Origin: an uncultured virus (IMG/VR IMGVR_UViG_2811995017_000004)
Taxonomy: Duplodnaviria; Heunggongvirae; Uroviricota; Caudoviricetes
Virus record (IMG/VR): IMGVR_UViG_2811995017_000004
Coordinates: 62,001-126,000 of that record
Length of the DNA: 64,000 bases
Direction: 5' to 3' (one strand)
The notes beneath the pieces are model-generated. The model saw only the letters and a program-made list of their open reading frames with translations, made no database searches and had not been told where the DNA came from. This document shows positions 3,951 through 57,065 of this stretch, in pieces. Position numbers and translations under genes: made by a program. The first letter of the stretch is position 1. Each line of letters opens with the position of its first letter.

Positions 3951-4039
3951 CCTTTTTCAATGACTTAAGAAACCCACAAAAATCTCTCTAATGATTCCTT
4001 TAAAAGTATGATTTCATTCAAACTTACTTTGAGATAAAC

Positions 4040-4255
4040 TCACTCATCTTTTTCGAATTTTATTAAATCACCTGGTTCACAGTTGAAATGCTTACAAAGC
4101 TTATCAAGCAATTCCCGTGGGTATCGTTCCATGTCATCGTTGTACATTTTTCTCACAGTTTCTTTCCCATGATTTATTTCGGCACTTAACCGAGAAATTG
4201 AGATACCTGCTTCATCTGCGATAGCCTTTAAATTTGATCTAATCATTTTTCTCAC
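4040..4255 (-). CDS. Cro/C1-type helix-turn-helix regulator
   Basis: SISRLSAEI...[16 protein letters not shown] is a typical XRE/Cro HTH. Confidence 0.85.
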
Positions 4256-4265
4256 CTCTTATTCA

Positions 4266-4294
4266 ACTTTACTTTGACTACTTAAAAACGTCAA
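4266..4294 (-). promoter_or_regulatory. sigmaA-type promoter with palindromic operator upstream of the HTH gene
   Basis: Minus strand TTGACG-N17-TAAAGT; TTGAC...GTCAA dyad overlaps the -35. Confidence 0.65.
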
Positions 4295-4318
4295 TCAAAA
4301 TTTTCCTATTTCAGAAAA

Positions 4319-4486
4319 TGCCCGTGATTTTTCAAGTTGGCTGTTATATCGTTTCCGCAAAAATTGCCCGCAACTTTTTACCGCTGCTGTTATACTGTTT
4401 TAATTTTTTTAGTGAGCTATGTGGCATCTTAAAAAATCCATTTGTGTACAAAATTTTGCCCGCAATAAAGGATAAGAGCTGTTATA
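4319..4486. repeat. three bipartite repeats TGCCCG-N16-CTGTTATA
   Basis: Copies at 4319-4348, 4365-4394 and 4457-4486, each with an exact 16-nt spacer. Confidence 0.85.
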
Positions 4487-4644
4487 CGCTTTATAAAGGG
4501 TATCCCTTTTTGGTTGCTTTAAACTCTTTTTAAAATGGTGTTTTTATTCAATTCTGTCGCCTTTCTTTTTGATTTTCTTTGAACAGCACGATCACCATTT
4601 ACTCAATAATAGTACGGCCGTGTAAATGTGGGTCAAGATCAACC

Positions 4645-4851
4645 TTATAAACGATTTTCGTTTTTTGTTTGGTTAACTTTTTCAGCTTTATCAGAAGACG
4701 CTTTAATCCTTTCACTAACCTGCTTAAATTGTTCTTTTGCCTCTGGGGTCTCTAAAGCTCCAAAGAACTTATCAGCAAACTCATCCCCTAAAGTCTCCGC
4801 CGACCGCTTCTTAAATTCTTCTTTATCCTTATCCAACTTTAACCCTCCCAC
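4645..4851 (-). CDS. hypothetical protein
   Basis: 68-aa ORF; may extend past an A-run frameshift. Confidence 0.5.
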   Translation of the reverse strand: MGGLKLDKDKEEFKKRSAETLGDEFADKFFGALETPEAKEQFKQVSERIKASSDKAEKVNQTKNENRL

Positions 4852-4968
4852 TCTTTTTGTTGCTTAAATATTAACATCTTTAACGGCATCATTCATTAAT
4901 TAATCAAATTACACTTTATAAACACAGTAGCAGCCACCCGAAAACAACGTTCGTCATTTTAATTTGTT

Positions 4969-5181
4969 TTAATGATAGCAAGGCAGCTCCGCGCACCATT
5001 CAAGATAATCGTTAATACTGCCGCCATACTGCTGTTGGTATTCAATATAGCCTTCCGCAAGCTCATCTAGTACCTGTTCCTGGCTTCCCCATTCTTTGGA
5101 CAAGTCTGAAGACTCTGGAGAAAGCAAGTACAATTTAATTTGCTCTCTTGTTACTTGGAATTGATTGTTATGTAAGATCAT
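4969..5181 (-). CDS. hypothetical protein
   Basis: 70-aa ORF, GAGGAG RBS. Confidence 0.7.
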   Translation of the reverse strand: MILHNNQFQVTREQIKLYLLSPESSDLSKEWGSQEQVLDELAEGYIEYQQQYGGSINDYLEWCAELPCYH

Positions 5182-5224
5182 TGATTAACTCCTCTTTCTT
5201 GTTATATTAAAACAAAGTATACTT

Positions 5225-5641
5225 TCAAATATTTCTTAACCTTTGTGCTAATGCTTGTTGATATTTTTTCCCTTCCTCAGTAGCTGAACAGTCAATTAAA
5301 TTAAGTGTATGCCCACCTTTTTCTATAGCCTCTAATAATTGATCTCCAACATCGCGGTTAACCCATTTCTTATGTTTTCTTTCGAACATGTACGAAAAAC
5401 CAAAATTGTTTTGGGTATATAAGTTAACTTTACAACTATAAGAAAGACTCTCTATTGCTATTTTAGAAGCCAAAATAATTGATCTGTTTTGTGTCCTCTC
5501 TAAGCAAGTAAAATATGTTTCCTTCGCTATTTCTTTATATCTATGTATTACAACAGCCTTTCCGGATTCAGCAGGCGCTTTCTGTAAGACTCTAACGAAT
5601 ATATCAATTTCCATCATAGACATAATATTCACCTTTTCCAA
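5225..5641 (-). CDS. hypothetical protein
   Basis: 138-aa ORF; true start may be the internal Met after AAGGTGA. Confidence 0.65.
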   Translation of the reverse strand: MEKVNIMSMMEIDIFVRVLQKAPAESGKAVVIHRYKEIAKETYFTCLERTQNRSIILASKIAIESLSYSCKVNLYTQNNFGFSYMFERKHKKWVNRDVGDQLLEAIEKGGHTLNLIDCSATEEGKKYQQALAQRLRNI

Positions 5642-5661
5642 AGATTTTATATTATATCCAA

Positions 5662-5907
5662 TTATCCCACATATTCCTTGAAATGCTCAATATCATTTAA
5701 GATAAAACTCCGTGTCATTGATATTTTTCTATACAGAGCAAGGACTTTTCTATTTTCCCTTTCCCATTCAGGATTTTTCAAAATGGGAATACAAAACTCT
5801 TTTTCTAGCTCTGTCATGAGAATGGCAAGTTTTTCATCTTTTGTTTTTTCTGTAAAATTAGAATTTAAAATATCTTCGTATCGATTTTGATATTCTGACA
5901 ATATCAT
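5662..5907 (-). CDS. hypothetical protein
   Basis: 81-aa ORF, GGAGG RBS. Confidence 0.7.
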   Translation of the reverse strand: MILSEYQNRYEDILNSNFTEKTKDEKLAILMTELEKEFCIPILKNPEWERENRKVLALYRKISMTRSFILNDIEHFKEYVG

Positions 5908-6033
5908 TGTCTCATTCCTCCATTCTGTCTAAACTGCTCCTTATCAGTAATTGCAATTACATGTTTCATGACTTCTCCACATTCTGGACATTATCAAGCA
6001 TTCTTTACCCTCCTATCTGTTTGAACAACTGTT

Positions 6034-7301: not shown

Positions 7302-7455
7302 ATTATCATTCCTTTTCTTTTTAATTCGCATTTTAATCGCGATAAATAATATAGAGTTATTCCTGTTGCAACCTACCCAATAAGGGGAACGCTGGCGGCT
7401 TAATGCCTAGTTAACGTCACCGCCACGACTGTTATACTGTGTCTGATATATCCTT

Positions 7456-9891: not shown

Positions 9892-11121
9892 TTAAATTTT
9901 GTTTTCAAGCCAGTTTTTTAACAATCCCCTCATTCTTGCAGATGGAACATATATATTTATTGTTCCTCCGTTTCGTATAGCTGATCTCCAAATCCATTGA
10001 ATCATCTCAGATAACGCATAGATATCTTGGTTAATTAATATTCCTTTTGATCTGAAATAATCGTCAATAGCTGGATTGACAAATCTGTTTATTGAATAGA
10101 CTAATGTCTTTTTGTGGCTATATTCATTTGTTGCCTTTGTATTGCAAGGTAAAAAGCCTTTTGTGTATCCCTTCCCGCTCAATTTGCTTTTATGTGTTTT
10201 GAATGTTGTCCAAAGATTATCTTTTGATTTTGATTTAATAATATTTTGATAATAATTTAAGATATTATTTTTAAGTCTTTTATGTAGTGCTGAACGTCTT
10301 TCAAACCAGTTTTTAGATAATGCATATTTGTCATCACCTATTTTGTTTAATTGCCCTTCATATATCTTTATTTTGTCTTTTAGATCCGCTTTTATTTTCT
10401 TATCATTGTCTTTATTATAGTTAATTAGTTTATATTCATTCCCATCGTTAATTACTGTGTATAGACTGTATTGAATATTATTCAGATCATAATAATATTT
10501 TTGTATTTGGGCATCAAACAAATAAGTTAAATTATATACCTGTTTAAACTGTTTAAAGATATCGGCTGGAAATTGCCAAAAAAGAACGCTGTCGTTATGT
10601 AAAATTAAATTTCTGCTCAATGCTAATTGTTTAAGGTTTTGAAATTCTCCTTTGTATTCCCTGTTTAACTTTTCTTCATGTTCTGCATTCCAAACAATTT
10701 GACCGTTATTATTTATAATCCATTTGTTTTTAAACAGCATATCTAAATCATCTTTTGATATGTTTAATTTTTTTACAACCTCCATAGCTTCATCTAGGAT
10801 TAGTGTATAGTTACCAGAATAAATAAGTTCTTTTGTTGTTTCATTAGCCATGCTAAATAATGCGTGTGTTGTTACAATATCTCTGTTTTCTGCTAAATAT
10901 TTGTGAAGTGAATCAAGTTTATATACTGTTTCCCCTTCCTCGCTGTGAACTTTAGGTTCATAAAATTTTCTATTCGTACATGATTTCTTTATTCTTGCCA
11001 CCTCATCAAGATAAGGCGTAATAAAAATAAAGTGTTCATCTTCTGAAGAATTATTCATCATATTAATTACATACGTTGTTTTGCCGCTTCCCATTATTGA
11101 ATCAATTACTTTAACTTTCAC
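9892..11121 (-). CDS. yonV: YonV-like P-loop NTPase / SF2 helicase-like protein
   Basis: Walker A MGSGKT, Walker B LILDE, motif VI-like QWIWRSAIR; 409 aa as recalled for SPbeta YonV. Confidence 0.8.
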   Translation of the reverse strand: MKVKVIDSIMGSGKTTYVINMMNNSSEDEHFIFITPYLDEVARIKKSCTNRKFYEPKVHSEEGETVYKLDSLHKYLAENRDIVTTHALFSMANETTKELIYSGNYTLILDEAMEVVKKLNISKDDLDMLFKNKWIINNNGQIVWNAEHEEKLNREYKGEFQNLKQLALSRNLILHNDSVLFWQFPADIFKQFKQVYNLTYLFDAQIQKYYYDLNNIQYSLYTVINDGNEYKLINYNKDNDKKIKADLKDKIKIYEGQLNKIGDDKYALSKNWFERRSALHKRLKNNILNYYQNIIKSKSKDNLWTTFKTHKSKLSGKGYTKGFLPCNTKATNEYSHKKTLVYSINRFVNPAIDDYFRSKGILINQDIYALSEMIQWIWRSAIRNGGTINIYVPSARMRGLLKNWLENKI

Positions 11122-11986
11122 TATAACGACTCTCCTTTTTATTATGTTTTATCCAACCTTTTAGGATATCCTCCATTCTTTTTGAAGCAACATAAATGTG
11201 AATAGGTTTATTTATATTTGAAACATCTACAATCCATTTAAGTAAAACCGAAAGCGCATAAGTCTCTTCAGTAAGATCTTTTAATTCTTCATATTTTCGT
11301 TTCAAAAATGGATTCAGAAAACAATTCGCCGCAAAACAAAGAGTATTACGTCTGTCATCCTCTTCAAGTTTATCTGTCAAAGGGACAAAAGACTTGATAT
11401 TACCAACATAAGATAACCTTTTATACTGTTGTGTAAATGTTGTCCATGCCCTGTCGTTATGGACAGTTTTAATTTGATTCGCAAAGTAATTGTTTATGTT
11501 AAGCCTTAATCTTTTTACCCCTTCACTATTTTTATTGAACCATAGTTTAGAATAGTCATATTTACCATTACCATATTTAGATAGATTGCCTTTCTTTTCG
11601 TGTATATTTAGATTTTTAATTAGTTTATTTTTGATTTCTTCATCCATTCTGTCAGAAAAGAAAACACTGTTTAAAAAGTCTACAGGTGCTGACTTTCTCT
11701 TTAATGAAGTGTCCAACATCACATTATAAAGGGTTGATACATCTTCCCCATCTATCCACATTTGTTCGATTTTTAATAAGTCTTTCTTGTCCTCAACATA
11801 TTCCAACACTTCAAAAGTGAAATCATTCAAACTGTATTTTTTCCAATCTTTTTGTAACAGGTGTGAATGATGCAACCCATAGTGCAGATCAGTCACATGC
11901 TGTTCCCATCTTTTGAATACATTTGAACTACTGCCTATATACTTCTTCCCGTTTTGTTTATTTGTTATTTGGTAAACGCCTTTCAT
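11111..11986 (-). CDS. GIY-YIG nuclease fused to a paralog of the YonV C-terminal domain
   Basis: GVYQI...YIGSS..V.KRW..H N-terminus; C-terminal half aligns by eye with the YonV C-terminus. Confidence 0.85.
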   Translation of the reverse strand: MKGVYQITNKQNGKKYIGSSSNVFKRWEQHVTDLHYGLHHSHLLQKDWKKYSLNDFTFEVLEYVEDKKDLLKIEQMWIDGEDVSTLYNVMLDTSLKRKSAPVDFLNSVFFSDRMDEEIKNKLIKNLNIHEKKGNLSKYGNGKYDYSKLWFNKNSEGVKRLRLNINNYFANQIKTVHNDRAWTTFTQQYKRLSYVGNIKSFVPLTDKLEEDDRRNTLCFAANCFLNPFLKRKYEELKDLTEETYALSVLLKWIVDVSNINKPIHIYVASKRMEDILKGWIKHNKKESRYSES

Positions 11987-15517: not shown

Positions 15518-16186
15518 CTACACATTTACACTTGAATTTTTGCTATTTACATTTTCATATAGCGTATTGTCAGTAATTCCATTGTCTTTGAAAGCCTTTT
15601 GCCTATTTTTGCATGGATCACACCAACCACAATGAATAGTGCTATTAGAAGCGCAACTCCAAGTTTCTTCAAGTGGTACACCAAGATCGAATCCAATTTT
15701 TAAAACCTCTGCTTTTGTCTTATCAAGAAATGGTGTGTGAATTTTAAATTCGCGACCCAATTCAATTGAAATAGCTTTTGAAAGTAAATTGAAAAATTCA
15801 TAATTGTTTTCTCTAAAGATCGTATCATCCTTGTGAACCGCGTAAAATAAATGATGAATGTCATTCTCTGCTGCATAAGAAGCAGCTAAAGAAATAGCAA
15901 TTCCTGCTCCAAATGCTTTAATAGGAGATGGTAGATGGGCTATACGAAGAATATGAATTGGATCGTCTTCCATATAGAATTCTCGTAAAACGCTTTCAAA
16001 ACTAATGAATTTATGAGACTTACTAATATCTTTCGCGATGAAATTAGCGGTTCTCTTTTCTGCCTCCCCCTCTTCTTCTCCAAAATTGAACGTTAATGTG
16101 TGCAGTTCATATCCCTGATGTTTAATCCAGTAAGCCAAGGTTGAAGAATCTGGTCCTCCTGATAACATTAGCAACGCTTTTTCCAT
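15518..16186 (-). CDS. divergent QueC-family PP-loop enzyme
   Basis: LSGGPDS PP-loop, TPF...KAEV, TWSC...HCGWCDPC..R zinc site; lacks canonical YVPxRN and YPDC segments. Confidence 0.85.
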   Translation of the reverse strand: MEKALLMLSGGPDSSTLAYWIKHQGYELHTLTFNFGEEEGEAEKRTANFIAKDISKSHKFISFESVLREFYMEDDPIHILRIAHLPSPIKAFGAGIAISLAASYAAENDIHHLFYAVHKDDTIFRENNYEFFNLLSKAISIELGREFKIHTPFLDKTKAEVLKIGFDLGVPLEETWSCASNSTIHCGWCDPCKNRQKAFKDNGITDNTLYENVNSKNSSVNV

Positions 16187-22313: not shown

Positions 22314-22449
22314 TGTTATTTCGGCTTACTTAAATTTTTGCCGATTTAAAGGTTTTGGCTAACCCGTAATCAGCCACATTCCCTGTCGATCCGAAGGCTT
22401 GCGTTCCTACGTGAGCTACTTATGTAGGTGAGAGGGGCTTTATTTTTTG

Positions 22450-26223: not shown

Positions 26224-27976
26224 CTTCACAACAGATCGTAAAAAACACAGCAGAGGTATTAACCTCTTCAATAAAGGCAGGAACTTCAACAAGAAATCTA
26301 AATCAGAAAGACTAATGGATGGTATTGGTGCTTGGGCTTCTTTTTATCGAGCAAATCCCCATCGTTTTGTAAAAGAATACTTAGGGATAACCCTTAAACT
26401 ATTTCAATGTATTTTGATTTACATGATGGTACATAACCATTATTTTATGTATTTAGCTAGTCGTGGACAGGGTAAAACTTGGTTAACCTCGGTGTACTGC
26501 TGTGTTCAAGCCATACTATTTCCTGGCACAAAGATAGTCATTGCTTCAGGAACTAAAGGACAAGCAAGAGAAGTTATTGAAAAGATTGATGATTTGCGAA
26601 AAGAGTCTCCGAATTTAAGACGAGAAATTGAGGACTTAAAAACTTCAACTAATGACGCAAGGGTCGAATTCCATAATGGTAGTTGGATTAAAATTGTTGC
26701 ATCAAACGACGGAGCTCGCTCAAAACGTGCAAACCTTTTGATTGTGGACGAGTTCAGAATGGTCGATTTTGAGATCATCAGCAAAGTATTGAGAAAGTTT
26801 CTTACCGCTCCAAGGTCTCCAAAATATCTTGAAAAAGAAGAATATGCTCATCTAAAAGAACGAAACAAAGAAATTTACTTATCATCCTGCTGGTATAAGG
26901 TTCACTGGTCATATAATAGATTTGTCACCTATTTTAATGCAATGATGAAAGGATCAAAATATTTTGTATGTGGTCTTCCTTATCAAATTGCCATTAAAGA
27001 AGGATTGCTTGATAAAGATCAAGTAAAAGACGAAATGTCTGAAGAGGACTTTGACCCAATTGGCTGGTCAATGGAAATGGAAGCATTGTGGTTTGGAGAA
27101 TCAGAAAAAGCTTATTTTAAATTTGAAGATCTCGAAAAAAATCGAAAGCTCGCCTCTCCCCTATTTCCACCTGATTATTATGACCTCATTAAAGATTCAA
27201 ATTTTAAATTTGAAAATAAAAAACCTGGTGAACTAAGGTTAATTAGCAACGACATTGCTGGCATGGCTGGTAAAGATAATGACGCCAGTGTTTACACTAT
27301 TTTTAGATTAATTCCAAATTCAAATGGTTATGATAGACACATTGTTTATATGGAGAGCATAGTTGGTGGACACACAGGTTCACAAGCAACAAGGATAAGA
27401 CAATTATTTGAAGATTATGCATGTGACTATATTGTGCTAGATACTCAAAGCATTGGTCTAGGTGTATATGATGCTCTTTGTCAGCCTCTATATGATAAAG
27501 AAAGAGCTAAAGAATATGAACCACTCTCTTGTATCAATGACGAAAAAATGGCTGAACGTTGCACGTATCAAAATGCCGAAAAACTCATTTACAGCATTAA
27601 AGGTAACGCTCAGTTAAATAGTGAGATTGCAGTTCTTCTTAAAGACGGATTTAAACGAGGAAAAATTAAAATCCCTATAAATGAAAATGAAGGTCGAGAG
27701 TATTTGAAGCGATTCAAGGGATACGAAGCCTTACCAGAAGAAACCAAGGCCAAATTTGTTTCATCTTATGTTCAAATCACCTTGTTGATCAATGAAATGA
27801 TAAACCTTGAAGCTGAATACAGCGATAACGGACAAATCAAGCTAAAAGAACCTAAGAGTAAACGAAAAGACAGATATAGTTCCGTGGCGTATGGGAATTA
27901 TGTTGCTACCCTTTTAGAACGAAAACTCAACAAACAAACAGAATATGACATTGATGATGATCTTGTCTACTTTTAA
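26207..27976 (+). CDS. yonF: terminase large subunit
   Basis: ASRGQGKT Walker A, LIVDE Walker B, RNase H-like domain ending KDRYSS; 589 aa. Confidence 0.92.
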
Positions 27977-41736: not shown

Positions 41737-42414
41737 ATGCTTAAACCTGATTTTAGCAAGTTTAACAATTTATCAAATAATATTAAGGCTTCTGATTCAG
41801 AAAAAGTATGGAGAGAGTTTCTCCTCACATCTTTTAACTTTGTAAATCACTGTTCTTATAAAGTTAATGAAGATGAGCTGTCAGAAATAACAAAGAGCCT
41901 ACAGAACTGGATTCAAAGAAGGCGGTTTAATCAGTATAAGGAAAGGAACAATATAGTAACACCACAACAAGGGGAAATCTTTTTAGCCGATTTAGGACTA
42001 AATTTCGAATTTGCTTATTGTCATCCTGTTCTAATTCTCGATGAAATTGAAAACAAATTGATCGTGTTACCTGTTACATCAAGTCCTGACAAAGTGAAAG
42101 ATGCTTTTCATCCAATAACAAATCCTTCTGGACTTAAACGTTACAGGAGGGTTACTCCTGCTGATGGATTTGAATCTGAATCAGCTATTGTAATGGATGA
42201 ATTGAGGATTATAAGTAAAGGGCGATTATTGAATAAGATATCCTCTTTGAATGAAGATATTTATTTAGTGGGATCAATTTTTCAAGAAGTAATTGAAACT
42301 TCCTTTTCATTGCTTTATAGCTTACAGTATCAAAAAATCAATGACATGGAACAAGAAATTGCTGAACTAAGAGATGAAATAAAGGTTTTAAAAGAAAAAA
42401 ACCATCAAGTTTAA
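41737..42414 (+). CDS. PemK/MazF-fold protein with N-terminal extension and C-terminal coiled coil
   Basis: QGEIFLADLG...HPVLIL...IVLPVTS...S.IVMDELRIISKGRL. Confidence 0.8.
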   Translation: MLKPDFSKFNNLSNNIKASDSEKVWREFLLTSFNFVNHCSYKVNEDELSEITKSLQNWIQRRRFNQYKERNNIVTPQQGEIFLADLGLNFEFAYCHPVLILDEIENKLIVLPVTSSPDKVKDAFHPITNPSGLKRYRRVTPADGFESESAIVMDELRIISKGRLLNKISSLNEDIYLVGSIFQEVIETSFSLLYSLQYQKINDMEQEIAELRDEIKVLKEKNHQV

Positions 42415-45699: not shown

Positions 45700-46635
45700 T
45701 TAAAATGGCAACTCAAAATAATGTGAATTTACAACCTCATATATTTCTTGTTTGACAACGGGGGCTAAATTGCGAAGCTCATCAAATATTGGCATAGGCA
45801 TTTTATACAACTTCACATTACCATATTCCGTATAATCTTTCGGCTCAATTAAACCTCTATCCAGAAAATTTTCTAAAACAGATTCATAATTATCTATTAA
45901 ATTACTCTTACCTAAAGATCTTTGATTCTCCCATTTTAAAATCATGTTCTTCGAATCATCCGCCATCCACCTAACTCCAAAAGAGCGATTCCCGGTCTCC
46001 AATATGTAACCAAGCAACAAAAATTCATTAACAGTTAGACTGCCGGAATAAATTAGATTTTTAAGGTTGACTTCTTCGATCTTTTTCTTCGTTAATTCCC
46101 TTTGAATAAATGCACTTTCTGGGTTGTTTCTTTTATATTCAACTACTTTATCGTATAGATGATCAATAACTTTATACTTGTCATAAGAACTGTATAGTCC
46201 AGTGTATTTCTTTTTAAATTCATCTACTCGCTTTAGCTCATCATAGTTAATTCCTTCTCGAGGAATGTCCTTGTCAACAAAGTAAATTAACACTTCTTTT
46301 TGTTGCTGTATAAAACTTTCGATTTCTTCAAGTGTTCCTGATGGGGCACTAGTAGTACGAGTCCCAAGTTTTGTCCAAAAAACACCTATTAAAATATCGC
46401 ATTTCTTCACAAGTGTTTCATTTATAATTCGCTGTGGCTCAATAGGATGGTATGTTGGTGCAACATCTTTTTCCCAGCGATTAGGCAGAAGTACAATGTT
46501 CAATTCTTCTGCAAAACGTCTGTTCCAATCAAAAATCGCATTTTCAATTTCGTCTCGTTGGCTTGATACATCGGAAGGTGATGCAATAAAAACCTGCAGT
46601 ACATCAGCTTTAAAACTCACAGTAATCAACTCCAC
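45700..46635 (-). CDS. DUF4062 (TIR/nucleoside deoxyribosyltransferase-like) domain protein with extra C-terminal domain
   Basis: VFIASPSDV..QR...RWE...PQ.IIN...CDILIGVFWTKLGT...SGTLEEI. Confidence 0.8.
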   Translation of the reverse strand: MELITVSFKADVLQVFIASPSDVSSQRDEIENAIFDWNRRFAEELNIVLLPNRWEKDVAPTYHPIEPQRIINETLVKKCDILIGVFWTKLGTRTTSAPSGTLEEIESFIQQQKEVLIYFVDKDIPREGINYDELKRVDEFKKKYTGLYSSYDKYKVIDHLYDKVVEYKRNNPESAFIQRELTKKKIEEVNLKNLIYSGSLTVNEFLLLGYILETGNRSFGVRWMADDSKNMILKWENQRSLGKSNLIDNYESVLENFLDRGLIEPKDYTEYGNVKLYKMPMPIFDELRNLAPVVKQEIYEVVNSHYFELPF

Positions 46636-47823: not shown

Positions 47824-48078
47824 ATGTGGAGTACAAATGTGTATGGCACTATTATTCTTACCGTTTCGCGCAAAACAGCAGCTTCAAGCAAATGTTTAGC
47901 AATACTGGATTCATACTATGCCATATCCGATGACAGAGTTGATTTAACAGAGTTAACTTTGCTTCACCAAAATGGAAAAGTTCTAGGGACTGTAAAGATT
48001 CACAATATCGATTTAAGATGGAATGGTTTTTGTTCTAAGTTCAAAAGTGGAGATGTAAACTGTGGCAGTAATAATTAA
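47824..48078 (+). CDS. hypothetical protein
   Basis: 84-aa ORF, GAGAGGA RBS. Confidence 0.65.
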   Translation: MWSTNVYGTIILTVSRKTAASSKCLAILDSYYAISDDRVDLTELTLLHQNGKVLGTVKIHNIDLRWNGFCSKFKSGDVNCGSNN

Positions 48079-49519
48079 TCAATTTGTTAAAGTCCGAGCA
48101 AGTAACAGAAACAAAACTTATTATGCCAATTTGGGTTATACGCCAAATGAAAAACAAGAATTCAAAATCCATTTAAAAGATCTCCCATTATCGAGTCCTT
48201 CTGAGGTTAAAATTGTATGTGATTATTGTAATAAATGTTCAAGTAAACCCTACAAAAATATTTCTAGTCAAAAAAACCATTTTTGTTCACGAGAATGTGC
48301 TAACAATTTTCTAATAGGTAAACCTTCGTGGAATGCGAGGCTAATACATATTAAATGCTCAGAATGTTCAAAAGATATTATAAGATCTGAATGGGAAACT
48401 AAACAGCATAAAAACCTTTTTTGCAGTAGATCTTGTGCAGACAATTTCATGAGAAGGAATAGAAAAGGAAAACTGAAAGTAAAACGATATGAATTAAAAT
48501 GCTCTTTCTGTAATGCGACTATTGAAAGAACAGAAAATGAGTTAAAAAGAGCTAAAAATCATTTTTGCTCTCAAAAGTGTTTGAGTGAATTCTCTAAAGG
48601 TAAGCCGAAAAATACTAAAGAAAAGATAAAGAAACTATGTCACAATTGCAATAAGCCAATATACATGACTCCATATAGAGCTTTACAAAGTAAACGAACA
48701 TTTTGCTCAAGAAATTGTCGTTCTAGTTGGATGAGAGAGTCAGATGAGTACAGAAAAATTGTTTTTAAAGGAAAAAGCGTGGAGCTTACATGCTCTAATG
48801 AATCATGTAACAAAACATTCACTCGGAAATTTTCTGAACTAAAAGAAAAGAATTTTTGCTCTATGGAGTGCGCAAAATCACTCAAAAAACTATCCTTTAT
48901 AAGGAATAATCCTAATCCAAAGAAAGAAAAAATAAGTGTCAGCTGCTATACATGTGGTGCTGGTAAAAAGGTACATGAGAGTGTTTTTAAAAAGAATAAA
49001 CATTTTTTCTGCTCCTATGACTGCTACCATCAAAAAAGACTTGAAATTACTGAAAAGAAAGTTACTTTGACTTCAATTCATAAAAAAATAAATAGGCTCT
49101 TGAATGAATGTGAAATAGAACACATCAATGAAAAAAACATTGGATATTTTTCATTGGATATATATCTACCTGAACATAAACTAGCCATTGAAGTTATGGG
49201 AGATTATTGGCATGGACATCCACAAAGGTACAATTTCAATAGTCTCAATAACATTCAAAAAAAGAACATCAAAAGAGACTACAGAAAGAACAGATATATC
49301 ACAAAGAATGGCATAGTAATTCTCTACCTTTGGGAGAACGATATAAATCAAGATTTTGAGTTGTGCAAACAGCTTATTTTGAAATTTATTTCAAAAAGAG
49401 ACGGTCTTCAAAATTTTCATAGTTTCAATTGGGCACTCGACAGTAATTCAAAAATAGTTTTACGAACCGAACTTTTTTGTCCCTTTTTTGATTATTTTCA
49501 AGGAGATGAACAAAAATGA
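48062..49519 (+). CDS. free-standing endonuclease: six Cys zinc-finger repeats plus C-terminal Vsr/DUF559-like nuclease
   Basis: Six CxxC...FCSxxC units; LDIYLP...AIEVMGDYWHG...RD..K...LYLWE.DI. Confidence 0.82.
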   Translation: MAVIINQFVKVRASNRNKTYYANLGYTPNEKQEFKIHLKDLPLSSPSEVKIVCDYCNKCSSKPYKNISSQKNHFCSRECANNFLIGKPSWNARLIHIKCSECSKDIIRSEWETKQHKNLFCSRSCADNFMRRNRKGKLKVKRYELKCSFCNATIERTENELKRAKNHFCSQKCLSEFSKGKPKNTKEKIKKLCHNCNKPIYMTPYRALQSKRTFCSRNCRSSWMRESDEYRKIVFKGKSVELTCSNESCNKTFTRKFSELKEKNFCSMECAKSLKKLSFIRNNPNPKKEKISVSCYTCGAGKKVHESVFKKNKHFFCSYDCYHQKRLEITEKKVTLTSIHKKINRLLNECEIEHINEKNIGYFSLDIYLPEHKLAIEVMGDYWHGHPQRYNFNSLNNIQKKNIKRDYRKNRYITKNGIVILYLWENDINQDFELCKQLILKFISKRDGLQNFHSFNWALDSNSKIVLRTELFCPFFDYFQGDEQK

Positions 49520-49855: not shown

Positions 49856-52800
49856 TTGAGCCAACAGTTGAAAATTGTAGTTACTCCAGTTGCCGACACC
49901 TCCGCTCAATCAGTTGAACAAATTAACAAGCAACTTAAAACACTACAATCTAAGTTAAACTCCCTTCAGCTCCAAACAAATATTGATGCTTCTGCTTTAA
50001 AAACCCTCAAAGAATTCTCTTCTGCAATTGAAACATATCAAAAAAATCTTAAGAATTACAATCAGACAGTTAAAGAAACACAAACGGTCATTAAGAATGC
50101 TGATGGGACAACTGAAAAAATCATTCAGCAGCACAAAAAGAATGGAGAAATACTTCAGCGAGAAATTAAGACGATTGATAATCGAAATCAAAAGATTCGT
50201 CAAGAAACTCAAGAAACAGCAAAATTAACCTCTGAAATTCAAAAGCTTGGCCAAGCTCAAAAGATAATTGAACGTCAAAATGCTCAAGGTATCAAGACAG
50301 GCACTACTCAAAAAAATCGTGATGGTTTTAAGGATATTACGTACAATCTCGACCAAAATGGGAATATTAAAAACTCAACCACTGTAACAAATATTGATCA
50401 ACAAAGAAAAGCAATCGAACAGCTTAGAGTAAGCCTACAAAGACTAAAAGAGCAAGGGCAACTGTCTGAAGTCACGCTCTCCTCTCTTGGAAGAAAAATT
50501 AATTTAGTTCAGTCTACAGAACAAATTGAAGCACTCAGAGTCAAGCTTAAGACTCTTGATGACAAGTCAGCAGCAGTTGCAAAGACTAAAGAGCTTGAAA
50601 GGCAGTTAGAACTATATAGAAGACAAGCACAGGTAAATACTCAGAACCTGCAAAACAGATACGGCAGCTCATTGAGCAATACAAGTAATCAACAGCTTCA
50701 ACAGTATTTGAATTCAGTTAATCAATTAACTGCAAGGACACCTAATCTAAGAAATCAGATGGCTAGTCTTAATGTGCAGTTTAGGGAAATGTCCTCTAAC
50801 ATTGCTGCTACTACAAGGCAGACAATGAGTTTTGGAGAGCAGCTTCAAGTAGCAATGTCCCGCGTGCCTGTGTGGATGGCATCTATGACACTTTTTTATG
50901 CACCTTTGAGACTGCTTCAAGATCTCACCAGCCAAGTAATATCGCTTGACACTCAAATGACTGGCTTACGACGGGTTATGGACTTACCTGATTATAAGTT
51001 TAACGAGCTTCTTCAAAAATCTATTGATTTGAGTGATGAGTTAGCAAACAAGACTTCAGATGTTCTAACTATAATGAACGAATTTGGGCGTATGGGTTAC
51101 AAAGATGATGAGCTATTAGATCTAACCAAGACAGCTCAAATGATGGAGAACATTAGTGAACTACAACCTGAAGATACCGTTAAAGCTCTCACAGCAGCGA
51201 TGGTCAACTTCGGAATTCAATCTAAAGACAGCTTAAAAATCGCCGATGCATTGAACGAGGTTGACAATAATTTCCAAACAAGTACATTGGACTTGGCTCA
51301 ATCAATGAGAAAGTCAGCTGCCGCTGCAAAAGTATATGGCGTGAGTATGGAACAGCTTTTAGGATACACAACTGCTATTCAATCTAGTACCAAAGAATCT
51401 GGTAACATTGTCGGTAGAATAATTGCTGACATTAAATCTCTTCTGATTGACTTGGAAATCCTAACGTTCAGTCGAGGACGACAAGGGGCAAGCGTAATGG
51501 TAGCCTGAACGACTGAGTGAAGAGACACAGAAATGTGAAGCGACAGTCTGAACTCTATGGAAACATAGAGAGTGAGGTTGAAGCGCCTCACCGCCATTTA
51601 TAATGGTCAGTAGCCTTTTGGTGAAAGTAACAGAATTGAACGCCTTAAAAACAATATTCGCCAGAATCCAAACAAATGGAGCAGCCATTAAAAGTCTTGA
51701 GAGTGTAGGAATTGCAGTTAAAGATGTAGGTGGAGAAGCTATACCTGTATCTGAAATCCTTGAGAATCTTGCTTCTAAGTGGGACAGTCTCTCTGAGGCA
51801 CAGAAGCAGCAAATCGGGGTTTCGTCAGCAGGTATGTTTCAAAATACTCGATTAATTATAGTCGCCTTATACAGTAATGTATAAGTGAAAACCCAGTGAA
51901 CCCTATTGCTCAGGGGTGTGTCCTTTTCACAGGATGCTAACGGTGGAACTCTAAGGGAGAAATCCTATGACAATACCGTGCCAAGCCTATTTTAGGAAGG
52001 TGTAACGACTAGCCTAACGGCGTAGAACAGACATTGAGCTACTGTTCAAAGTGCTGGGCATCCTTTTAGGATGAAGATATAGTCTAGTCCCCTACTTAAA
52101 TATCGGGAAACCGAGGGTATAAACGTTTTAGCGCTCATGGAGCAATGGAGTACGGCTACCAAGGCCACTACTACTGCAATTAACAGCCAGGGATCTGCAA
52201 TGCGTGAGCAAGAACGATACTCTGAAAGTTTGGAAGGACGCCTCAACAGATTGTCTGCTTCTTGGTCAGGTCTTGCAGCAAATGCAGGTGATGCTTTCCT
52301 TTCTGATGGAATAATTTCATTTGCCGAAATATTGAAAGATATAGTCCAAGCAGGAGCAAGCGTAACAAAAACAATTGGATTTTTGCCAAGTGTATTCGCG
52401 ACAGCATCTGCTGCAATTCTCCTGTTTAATAGCAATCTAAGGTCAACCATGATTCTTGCCGGATCAAATATGGGAACCGCGTTAAAGTCTCTTATAGCTA
52501 ATTTTAGTTTGCTCAATGTGGCTTCAACTGGTGCTGCCGCAGGACAGAGAATGCTTGCAATTGCGACTAACGTAACTTCTGTTGCAATAACTACATTAGG
52601 CAAAGTAACCAAAACAACAATGGCTTTTCTTGCAGGTGCTGTACTGCCTATGGCAGGTTTCATGGCTTTAGGCTTCGTAATCGAAAAACTTGTCTCTGCT
52701 TTTTCTGATGCTAAACAAGAACAAGAAAAGCTTGCAGAGTCACAAAAGAAAAGCGTTGAAGCAATAACCACAAATAAAGAACAGACCGATCAGTTAATAC

Positions 52801-55800
52801 AAAAATATAAAGAGCTGCAAAAAGCAAAAGATAATGGCTCCCTCTCCCCTGACAAGGAGCAAGAATATCTACAGGTCACGCAACAATTAGCACAAACGTT
52901 CCCTAATTTGATTTCTGGCTATGACTCCCAAGGTAATGCCATCATTAAAAATAACGAAGCATTAGAAGATGCCATAAAATACACCAAAGAATTAGCTGAA
53001 TTAAACAAAAAAGACATTCAAACTGGCGCAAATAGCAACTTTAAAGAAACCCTCAGTGATATCAGTAATCTGACTGATGAAATGAAAGAGTATCAAAAAG
53101 TTGCAGACCATTATAAAAACAACGATCGGCCATTCTGGGATATCTTCGACAGCGACAGTGATTATAAAAATTTTGGGATTAAAGCTGAACAACAAGCTCT
53201 TCAAGTCAACCAGAAGCTATCTAGCTCACAAGCTAAACTTAGAGAGCAAGTGCTGCAAACTGTTGACGCTTATAACTCCATTAAAATCAACCCTCAGTTA
53301 ACCAAAGATATCAACGAAGCCTTCAATAAAATTGACTTTAGTAAGATGACTTCTGATGAATTAGAGTCGTTTTCCATTAATGTTTCAAAATACATGGATG
53401 ACATTCAGAAAGCATTGGAATCAGGGAATAAAGTTGATTTCTCAAGAGCATCTCAAGCACTTCAGAATTTAATTAACCAACAAATCAAAGGTTCTGATGA
53501 AGCTGACAAACTTTCCTTATCTTATGATGACCTAAAGAATGCTATAGACTCTACAAAAAATGCTGCTGATTCTGCAAAGGTCACTTGGGATGAAAATGGT
53601 GAAGGGGTAAACGAATTAACAGGAGAAGTCGAAGATTTAAGTCAAAAGCTCAAGGATGCTAAAGGCGATCTAGAGGCAATAAAAGCTGTAATGGACGATT
53701 TGGTGGCTTCTCAGCAAACAGAACTAGCTATTTCTGCCCTTCAAAATGAAGCATATGATTCTTTTGCTGACTCCATCTCCCCTCTCAATGAACTGCTTGA
53801 GAAAATGGCTGAAGGAAAAAGCATCTCAGCTGCTGAAGCAATGAAACTGGTTCAAAAAGAAAAAGACTTGGCTGGAGCTATTAGTGTTGAAAACGGCGTA
53901 GTTAAATTAAACCGAGATGCTATCATAAAACTACGTGATGCAAAACTTAAAGCATACAATGATATGCAAAAGTCAGTTAAACAGGATCTAATCAACCAGG
54001 CAAACGCAACAGTAAAGAAAATAAAGAACTATGGTTTAGAGGTCAAATCAATCCAGACTGTTGCCGATGCGCAAGCCAACCTTTCCAAAATGAGAAAACA
54101 AGTAGACACTTTGATGGAAAGTGGCAATATCCAGATGGCAATGCCAATCATTAAAGAAATAAACGAGTTGAGCGACGTCACTGGACAGTTAGAAGATCTG
54201 GATAAAATGGCTGAATTGGCCAACTCATCTTTAAATGAAGTTGGTACGTCCCTTGAGAAATATTCTGATGAACAAGAGAAAGCCAGCAAAGAAACTGAGA
54301 AATCCAAATACGTCATTGATAAATATAAAGAAGCCCTTGAAAAAGTAAATGCAGAAATTGAGAAATACAACAAGCAAACCAATGATTATCCTAAATGGTC
54401 ACAAAAATACAGAGACGCAATCAATAAGGAAATCAAGGCATTAGAGCGTAAGAAAAAGCTAATGCAAGATCAGATTAAACTGCTGAAACAGCAAATCAAA
54501 TCTGGTTATATTCCTCAAACTGGACTTGTTACCTCCTCTTCCTCTTCTGGTTCTTCATCAGGATCATATTCTTCTGGAGGATCATATTCCGGAAAATACT
54601 CTTCTTATATTAATACTGCAGCAAGCAAATATGGTGTTGACCCTGCACTAATCGCTGCGATTATTAAACAAGAATCAAACTTCAATGCCAAAGCTCGTTC
54701 TGGCGCTGGAGCAATGGGTTTGATGCAACTCATGCCTGGTACTGCAAAAAGTCTAGGTGTAAACAATGCATATGATCCTTATCAAAACATCATGGGCGGT
54801 ACAAAATATATCGCTCAAATGCTCAATAAGTTTGGCGGCAACATTGAAAAAGCATTGGCTGCTTACAATTCGGGGCCAGGAAACGTTATTAAATACGGTG
54901 GCGTCCCTCCTTTCAAAGAAACACAAAATTACGTTAAGATCATTCTTTCCAACTACAATAAGAGCTTATCTACTGCGACATCAAAAATTGCTAATTACTA
55001 CACCAGCGCGAATGGATTTAGAGTAAGCTCAAAATTTGGACAAAAAGAAAGTGGTCTCCGCTCCTCCCCTCATAAAGGATTAGACTTAGCAGCTAAAGCA
55101 GGTACTCCTGTTAAAGCTTTAAAAGCTGGTAAAGTCATAACCGCTGCCTATTCTAAAACAGCAGGCAACTGGGTTGTCATTCAACAGGATGATGGAACAG
55201 TTGCAAAATACATGCACATGCAGAAAGGTCTTAAAGTCAAAAAAGGCGATGTTGTTTCTGCTGGTCAAACAATAGGTAAAGTTGGAAGCACTGGACATTC
55301 AACAGGAAATCACCTTCACTTACAGATTGAACAGAACGGAAAACCAATCGATCCAGAAAAGTATATGAAAGGTTTGACGTCTGACCTATCTCAATCTGAA
55401 GCCGAAAGACAACAGGCTATTGCTCAAGCAAAGTCTGATCTAATCGGCTTACAAGGTGATTTGGACTCAGTAAATGATCAGATCCAAGAACTTCAATATG
55501 AATTAGTTCAATCTAAGCTCGATGAATTTGATAAGCGTAAATCAGATTTGGAAGTTAAGATTGCTAAAAACGAATCCTTAGCTAAACACTACCTCACCGA
55601 CAGCAAAGAATTCCGTAAATACACTAACGAGCAAAAGAAAGCTGTTGATGAGCAGCGGAAAATTCAACAGGAAAAGCTCAATTGGATTAACAAAGAGCTT
55701 AAAACAAACAAAAAGCTCAACTATGCTCAACGTGATCAGCTTAGAGAAGAACTGAAACAGGCCAAATTAGATTTAATCTCCCTTGAGGATCAAGTCAGAG

Positions 55801-57065
55801 AGCTACAAGGTCAGCTTGTTCAATCTAAAGTTGATCAAGTACTCAACAACATCGAGAAATCAGTCAAGAAAACTGAGGGTAAGCTTAAAGATGTTGATAT
55901 CAAGATTCAGATGACTGAGGATGACAATCAAAAAGTCAAATACTACAGTCAGCAAGTAAAATTGATTCAACAGCAACAAGCTGAAGCCAAAAAGTACATC
56001 AAACAGCTTGAGGAACAGAAAAAGGCAGCTAAAGGTTTTCCTGATATCCAGAAACAAATCACAGAGGAAATTGAAAACTGGAAAGATAAACAAAAGGACT
56101 ACAACCTTGAGCTTTATAACACCAAGAAGTCCATTAAGGATATTTACAAATCACTTGCAGATGAAGTCGTTTCTATTTATAAAGAAATGTACGAAAAGAT
56201 GCGTGATATTGAACTTGAAGCCCATCGAAAAGCAACTCAAAACATCATTGATGAAATTGACAAAGAAGACGATGAAGCCAAGTTCCAGAAGTCCCTTAAA
56301 GAGAAACAGGAATCCATTCAGGAAACAAAAGATCAAATCAATAAGCTGTCTTTAGATGATTCTGATGAAGCCAAAGCAAAATTAAAGGATTTGGATAAAC
56401 AGCTTCAGGAACAAGAGCAAGACCTTGAAGAGTTTCTGAAAGATCGTGAAAACACGAAACGAAAGGAAGCACTCCAAGATCAGCTTGAAAAAGATGAAGA
56501 ATCAATCAACAAAAAGTATGATGACCTTGTTAATGATGATCGAGCCTTTAAGGAACTTGAGAAAAAACTTTTGGATGGTAAGATAACCGATATTGCTAAA
56601 CAGCTTAATGAATTCACTAAGTTCATCAACAGCAACATGGATTCCATCGGTAAGAGTATTTCAAACAACCTTATCGATAAACTTAAAGAAGCTTCCAATG
56701 CTTTAAATGTCGTGATTGCCGGAAATAAAACTGGCAAGAAGGTTTCCTCTTTTGATGTTGGTGGGTATACCGGAAAATGGGGAAGCTCAGGAAAGCTTGC
56801 TATGCTTCATGAGCAAGAGCTTGTATTGAACAAATCTGATACAAGCAATGTCCTGAAAATTGTTGAGCTGACTAGAAACATCTTCGGAGACATTCCAACA
56901 AAAGCTACGCTCCCTTCCCCTTTTACTGCACCTAATCAAACGACAAGCAATCAAACAATCAATATTAACTTTAACGTGGATAAAATGACTGGTTCTAAGG
57001 CTGATGCAGAGAAATTCTTAGGAGAAGTGTATAACATTGCATCAGCTAGAGGAGTGAAAATTTAG
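49856..57065 (+). CDS. yomI: tape measure protein / cell-wall hydrolase CwlP, three exons (49856-51415, 51639-51852, 52126-57065), 2237 aa spliced
   Basis: Splicing restores [15 protein letters not shown] and QNTR(F)LALMEQ; SLT motif IKQESNF...GLMQLM and M23 motifs HKGLD...HLH. Confidence 0.9.
51416..51638 (+). ncRNA. group I intron 1 (223 nt, no ORF)
   Basis: 5' exon ends in U with U-G wobble in P1 (GTCGGT/GCTGAC); P3 TCTCTTC/GAAGAGA; P7 GACTG/CAGTC; P9 CTCTATG-GAAA-CATAGAG; terminal G. Confidence 0.9.
51853..52125 (+). ncRNA. group I intron 2 (273 nt, no ORF, IA-like with P7.1/P7.2)
   Basis: P1 CGAT/GTCG with U-G wobble; P2 CTTATAC/GTATAAG; P3 CCCAG/CTGGG; P7 GACTA/TAGTC; P8 CATCCT/AGGATG; TCGG-GAAA-CCGA; terminal G. 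Confidence 0.9.

Follow-up and report, generated by a model that had tools for sequence, protein, structure and literature searches.

The tape-measure gene of the analyzed provirus very probably carries two unrelated self-splicing group I introns, I1 and I2, which appear to be passengers likely spread by endonucleases acting in trans. Both introns are ORF-less and lie in the conserved PhageMin_Tail domain. Each of them likely self-splices from the late mRNA, which would restore a 2237-aa tape-measure/cell-wall-hydrolase protein: first, guanosine bound in P7 would attack past the U-G pair of P1, and then the 5' exon would attack past the terminal G. Two-step splicing chemistry initiated by guanosine is established for group I introns. 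As selfish passengers, I1 and I2 have likely spread via DNA-break repair driven in trans by tape-measure-specific endonuclease families, predicted members of which occur both inside tape-measure introns and free-standing upstream. The nuclease gene upstream of the introns is a candidate helper rather than a fixed partner.

The window, that is, the whole analyzed stretch of 64,000 nucleotides, belongs to a provirus record of 129,459 bases; its main features are listed in Table 1. The gene order of the tail region is SPbeta-like. Among named relatives, a Bacillus paralicheniformis prophage was the closest found (89% identity across exon 2), and the host therefore likely belongs to the B. licheniformis group. 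The original prediction, made from the window sequence, described the anatomy of the two introns correctly but overlooked the endonuclease gene upstream, as well as the fact that the introns are present in some relatives and absent from others.

Table 1. Features of the window, with predicted intron helices (window coordinates)
Feature	Position	Strand	Remarks
Pistol ribozyme	7367-7430	-	46.2 bits, above Rfam cut-off
GIY-YIG endonuclease	11111-11986	-	
QueC-like protein	15518-16186	-	
DUF3800-VIII RNA motif	22377-22441	+	above Rfam cut-off
PemK/MazF-like toxin domain	41737-42414	+	
Weak DUF4062 match	45700-46635	-	
Predicted homing endonuclease, free-standing	48062-49519	+	485 aa; PHROG HNH/homing matches
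Exon 1, YomI/CwlP-like tape-measure	49856-51415	+	520 codons; Pfam PF10145 positions 3-134 of 201
Intron I1	51416-51638	+	223 nt, ORF-less group I; Rfam E 3.7e-4
I1, IGS	51425-51431	+	
I1, P3	51437-51443/51519-51525	+	
I1, P7	51509-51515/51544-51549	+	
I1, P9	51553-51570	+	GAAA loop
I1, terminal G	51638	+	
Exon 2	51639-51852	+	214 nt = 71 codons + 1 nt; Pfam PF10145 positions 136-197
I2 with flanking exon patch	51821-52190	+	~100 nt exon, about -32 to +65
I2, P1	51849-51864	+	
Intron I2	51853-52125	+	273 nt, ORF-less group I; Rfam E 1.5e-9
I2, P7	52005-52011/52080-52085	+	
I2, terminal G	52125	+	
Exon 3, CwlP-like	52126-57065	+	SLT transglycosylase PF01464 E 9e-34; M23 peptidase PF01551 E 2e-31

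Anatomy of the interrupted tape-measure gene

In the unspliced DNA, the tape-measure gene is seen as two ORFs of 550 and 1642 aa. Removal of I1 and I2 leaves 6714 nt with one stop, encoding 2237 aa, and the resulting frame has no further break. The product aligns with SPbeta YomI over 2303 columns at 56.9% identity (52% for exon 2), and the alignment is gap-free at both junctions. The PhageMin_Tail domain (PF10145), split by I1 at Pfam position 134/136, becomes a single continuous match to the domain HMM in the spliced product, with a score of 311 bits.

To place the boundaries, stop-free pairs of cuts were scored against SPbeta YomI, 585 for I1 and 577 for I2. The predicted boundaries belong to the top-scoring tie for each intron, and within the tie they are the sole pair with U before the first cut and G before the second. 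The I1 junctions consist of exon GTCGGT, the intron-terminal G, and exon AACGCC (phase 0), and those of I2 of exon CTCGAT, the intron-terminal G, and exon TTTTAG (phase 1); exon 1 ends with the U that pairs with G in P1. Intron-less alleles, in SPbeta and in sister phages, have a gap of 0 at both sites. Both introns contain stops in all three plus-strand frames. Translation ends prematurely at 550 aa if the gene is unspliced, at 601 aa if I1 only is removed, and at 521 aa upon exon skipping, so that two splicing events would be needed for the full-length tape-measure protein.

The Rfam group I model RF00028 matches I2 with 43.3 bits and I1 with 25.3 bits. Since the gathering score of this model is 50 bits, neither intron was picked up by an Rfam scan at the gathering threshold; applied to 14 related loci, the same threshold found only the codon-504 intron, in two of them. 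The hand-built helices P3, P4, P6, P7 (the G-binding helix with its bulge), and P8 base-pair in both introns, and both have P9.0/P9 with a terminal G. Further, the I2 model includes P2, P3.1/P3.2, P7.1, P7.2, and P9a with a GAAA loop, and the I1 model is devoid of P2, P7.1, and P7.2. By these features, I2 may be IA2-like (P7.1 and P7.2 present) and I1 IB-like (P2, P7.1, and P7.2 absent).

Comparison of related copies adds to the structural evidence. The P1 U-G pair at the 5' splice site is conserved in all seven I1 copies and in all nine members of the I2 family. Among the I1 copies, 98.8% of the cells are paired. The outermost exon-IGS pair of I1 (-7) occurs as U-A, A-U, C-G, or U-G, with a double-sided change in three of the seven copies, which ties the guide of I1 to its exon. 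The I1 core is invariant in these copies, hence the covariation of I1 rests on three pairs, a count matched by 41 of 500 shuffles. In the I2 family, 95.0% of the cells are paired, and 34 of the 80 pairs are changed on both sides. For both introns, the percentage paired and the score exceed those of 500 out of 500 shuffles, which ignore relatedness and are not readable as probabilities; slid controls are 32-45% paired across both introns (35-41% for I2). No similarity between I1 and I2 was detected by blastn, and this supports their independent origin.

Thus the main elements of the original prediction are borne out: two ORF-less group I introns 214 nt apart with exact boundaries, a U-G pair in P1, P3/P7 cores, a GNRA-capped P9 (GAAA in both), a terminal G, independent insertions, and a 2237-aa frame colinear with YomI. 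The predicted 550-aa truncation is confirmed by translation, the dependence of the full protein on two splicing events is supported by the ends of the partial products, and the group I covariance model matches both introns, albeit below its gathering score.

Two further group I introns were found outside the window, at G000:C1:15574-15788 (-) and 27029-27357 (-). One is located in nrdE and the other in a DNA polymerase III alpha-like gene, where the insert has a 335-aa ORF; both gene names were recognized from sequence and not by a family scan.

Splicing and the RNA contigs

Of 24 listed runs, eight were covered. The RNA evidence comes from five contig sets (X15-X19); X13 is DNA, and the raw-read runs X22 and X24 gave 0 reads. 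Neither exon-exon joint, 51415-51639 or 51852-52126, was found among the RNA contigs of X15-X19, and several of these contigs cross an intron junction in the unspliced form. As RNA contigs drop rare forms, the missing joint is no evidence against splicing. In run X19, an intron of the type present in the related locus L110 has its 3' end connected to its own nucleotide 17 in one contig (depth 12.5), forming a 259-nt circle. This intron is 91% identical to I2 and sits at another site. Intron circles are a kind of product that group I introns give. We infer that the window allele is spliced as well.

A 358-nt contig of the same run has both ends in a repeat common to the two I2-family introns of L110, and its length would fit a near full-length circle (~336 nt) of the 337-nt intron at codon 475. 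In X15, a joint 51844-52155 was considered as a splice product and rejected, as its sides are separated by 37 other letters; it is an I2-less allele. The depth in X15 is 943 over the introns and 75-86 in the exons; this difference was set aside because several related phages are summed in it. The X15 contig with depth 943 that covers 51395-51585 has an I2-like 3' end joined to the sequence just upstream of I1, and it diverges beyond 51585.

The unspliced junctions, the lack of a spliced one among the X15-X19 contigs, and the sub-threshold Rfam scores could also be expected of dead introns in a decayed prophage, the tail gene being a pseudogene. We consider this extremely unlikely. The core pairs are all intact, compensatory changes are present, including those between exon and IGS, the 2237-aa frame is otherwise unbroken, and near-identical intron copies reside within diverged alleles.

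Intron sites and nucleases in related phages

Inserts in the PhageMin_Tail domain were found at no fewer than seven sites, corresponding to codons ~464, 470, 475, 504, 520 (I1), 585, and 592 (I2) of the spliced product. Three introns each are present in L109, L110, and L112, two in L113, and one in G001, G021, G022, G091, and Geobacillus virus E3, and none in SPbeta. This distribution bears on the possibility that the introns are domesticated, with the rate of splicing or exon skipping tuning the tape-measure output, or with a role for the 550-, 601-, or 521-aa products. The partial products all terminate in stops, and exon skipping is reported in Twort orf142 and in the polymerase gene of SIOphi (PMC11878797). 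However, SPbeta and many sisters are intron-less, and the set of introns varies freely from one close relative to the next, which makes domestication very unlikely. Mobile passengers remain the preferred reading.

The domain forms a mosaic block, with 92-98% identity between L110 and the window on either side of it and 46-65% inside. Despite this divergence of the surrounding exons, I1 of L110 is 97% identical to that of the window, and the shared exon tract around it is short (about -15 to +17). A search for I1 in two Bacillus genomes found nothing. The exon patch flanking I2 differs from the I2-less sister alleles and is common only to the other I2 carrier, L109; the I2-less L113 is otherwise 96-100% identical to the window upstream (49860 to 51300). 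The patch is likely a co-conversion tract of DNA-break repair, such as homing leaves. Trans-homing of the introns is likely.

After L109, the nearest relatives of I2 are introns at codon 464, 382 exon nucleotides away: that of L110 is 91% identical (L110 5133-5407, reverse, against window 51853-52125) and those of L112 and L353 ~90%. These introns have the same CGAU exon end and the same IGS as I2, and the empty codon-464 site of the window (51247/51248) likewise ends in CGAT. I2 has either moved between the sites or arisen by recombination of two co-resident introns.

A move at the RNA level, by reverse splicing guided by the 4-nt exon end CGAU, would agree with the likeness of I2 at codon 592 to the codon-464 introns, with the circular form of the L110-type intron, and with the fact that the other intron at codon 592, in L112 and L353, has no blastn match to I2. 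We regard such a move as doubtful. The latest move of I2 carried ~100 nt of exon, an indication of DNA repair. Since codon 592 already harbors a related intron whose IGS is identical, recombination of co-resident introns explains the swap equally well. Moreover, a review (PMC3984707) states that the RNA route has no direct experimental evidence.

The gene upstream of the introns occupies a swappable slot 1.9 kb from them. Its product combines Cys-rich repeats with a Vsr-like/EDxHD-type nuclease domain. The profile of the family matches I-Bth0305I (PDB 3r3p) with E 9.4e-7, and the single sequence does so with E 0.058; DUF559 look-alikes of the domain stand at 0.92-0.93. In the EDxHD motif, the Asp, Glu, His, and Asp align, and the first position is His, which is mostly Gln in the family and Glu in I-Bth0305I. 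By eye, the I1 junction shows no evident TTxG-N6-CxAA, the target consensus of I-Bth0305I. The nuclease activity, its target, and the homing route are putative.

With the window gene as the only query, a tape-measure domain was found within 5 kb of its relatives in 41 of 47 viral loci, which sample the nearest subfamily as they were fetched by exact peptide words; one more locus, a truncated one, fell short of the cut-off. In a control with the GIY-YIG gene of the window, none of 13 loci, mostly close relatives, was near the domain. After clustering at 90% identity, with one short row dropped, 25 of 29 nuclease clusters are linked to the domain: 12 are inside inserts at the site of I1, nine at codon 470, and four free-standing upstream. 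Three of the I1-site inserts (L083, L279, and L289) have, by eye, group I motifs and an I1-like 3' end. Among six nuclease-bearing inserts tested, Rfam group I matches were found in one. When 25 nuclease-bearing loci were searched for a P7 motif, the method proved too crude to deal with the codon-470 class, and some loci were judged by eye.

At the nine I1-carrying loci, the upstream slot contains a member of the window nuclease family (four loci), a second family (three), or neither (two). In L284 and L307, the free-standing nuclease gene accompanies an uninterrupted domain. In a tree of 34 nuclease domains, from which rows shorter than 71 aa or within the 90% clusters were left out, free-standing and I1-site rows are intermixed in two starred clades; the window protein is not placed, having a long branch and unsettled bootstrap.

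Several other loci carry related elements. The second endonuclease family, with HNH_repeat domains, occupies the upstream slot in sisters (L072 1535-3310, L073 1009-3333) and is also found within an insert of the tape-measure gene near codon 585 (L211 688-1863). L176 has, at the site of I1, a 2-kb group I-like insert (3979-6000) with a third, different endonuclease-like ORF. Unannotated tape-measure introns were found in Geobacillus virus E3 (KP144388 gp42/gp43; L001) and in a record named Microcystis phage MaeS (MT362618; L363), whose intron-bearing locus carries a member of the window nuclease family. Finally, in Clostridium botulinum plasmid records (H205, H208-H212, H214, H215), the tape-measure matches either begin at reference position 100 or break off at 166, and these positions are the two intron-prone sites.

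A strict form of collaborative homing, in which the upstream nuclease cuts the empty I1 site, I1 blocks the cutting, and the pair is co-inherited, finds support in the 12 clusters of this family inside introns at the site of I1, in its free-standing members in four of nine I1 carriers, in the mixed tree clades, and in the layout of a nuclease next to an ORF-less intron, which matches T3, a cyanophage, and ICP1 terL. Still, we consider it unlikely. L113 is nearly identical to the window over 49860-51300 and has I1, yet a different nuclease family occupies its slot. The exon tracts around I1, as in L110, stop short of a gene 1.9 kb away, and nine clusters of the nuclease family reside at a different site, near codon 470. 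Among the relatives, the slot gene and the introns assort separately, and no co-inheritance of the nuclease gene with I1 was found.

A broader proposal joins a homing arena shared across Firmicutes phages, a nuclease family acting in trans, and a recent jump of I2 by reverse splicing. Under it, a Zn-finger/Vsr-like family dedicated to tape-measure genes would shuttle repeatedly between introns and the upstream slot, and I2 would have jumped between sites 382 nt apart that have in common only the exon end CGAU. If true, I2 would be a natural example, open to testing, of a group I intron transposed through reverse splicing in a bacterial virus. In this combined form the proposal seems improbable to us, and we retain the reading of two unrelated passengers likely spread by endonucleases in trans.

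Comparison with known systems

The novelty implied by the original prediction does not stand, since introns in tape-measure genes have been published for the B. cereus group (PMC2504315) and ICP1 (PMC10448857). The former reports, for prophages of the B. cereus group, three tape-measure sites that carry group I introns of subgroups IA1/IA2. Several strains have two introns in one gene, most of the introns lack an endonuclease, and 80%-identical introns occur at different sites. The B. cereus introns TMP-IVS1, IVS2, and IVS3a/b resemble I1 and I2 in being mostly ORF-less and in having relatives at different sites. IVS3b of pBWB404, like I1 and I2, is located in the PhageMin_Tail domain, although in a different phage group. 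It follows Pfam PF10145 position 201, that is, ~codon 585 here, compared with ~135 for I1, and I2 is ~7 codons beyond it, so its site is identical to neither; Pfam positions were used for this mapping, as our own domain HMM missed the pBWB404 tape-measure protein. Neither I1 nor I2 has blastn similarity to positions 1-50000 of pBWB404.

In ICP1, the tape-measure mRNA contains three introns confirmed by RT-PCR (PMC10448857). It is likewise a multi-intron gene, but the ICP1 introns contain HNH genes, whereas I1 and I2 are empty. The same paper describes an ORF-less intron in ICP1 terL with an adjacent T5orf172 endonuclease; the neighbor in the window is Vsr-like. Collaborative homing has been described for T3-like phages and a cyanophage (PMC3984707 and PMC10448857). 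The proximity of ORF-less introns to a free-standing endonuclease gene is the same here, but in the relatives of the window the two assort separately. I-Bth0305I, whose nuclease domain is matched by the family profile, has NUMOD repeats and is linked to recA (PMC3239194), whereas the window nuclease has Cys-rich repeats, is free-standing, and is linked to the tape-measure gene.

The introns of SPbeta, a member of the same phage group, are located in bnrdE/bnrdF, as PMC8270828 reports, and this agrees with the placement in ribonucleotide reductase genes given by the original prediction. An nrdE intron is also present in the provirus studied here, but the window pair is in the tape-measure gene, and yomI of SPbeta itself is uninterrupted. 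In line with the original prediction, which knew of no intron in yomI, we found no paper on yomI introns, or on this nuclease subfamily at tape-measure genes, in the main texts of the open-access literature; intron sites are listed in the supplements to PMC2504315 and PMC11878797, which could be relevant to the novelty of the sites.

From a practical standpoint, intron-split tape-measure genes are annotated as two fragments, for instance in Geobacillus virus E3 and Microcystis phage MaeS, and consequently tail length and gene content are misread. Tape-measure introns being already known, the window pair is a further example, and the introns themselves are ordinary. Their value lies in a natural series of closely related SPbeta-like prophages with 0 to 3 introns at differing sites and swappable nucleases in one fixed slot. 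In a host group convenient for laboratory work, this series allows tests of two old questions, the continued spread of ORF-less introns and the arrival of an intron at a new site.
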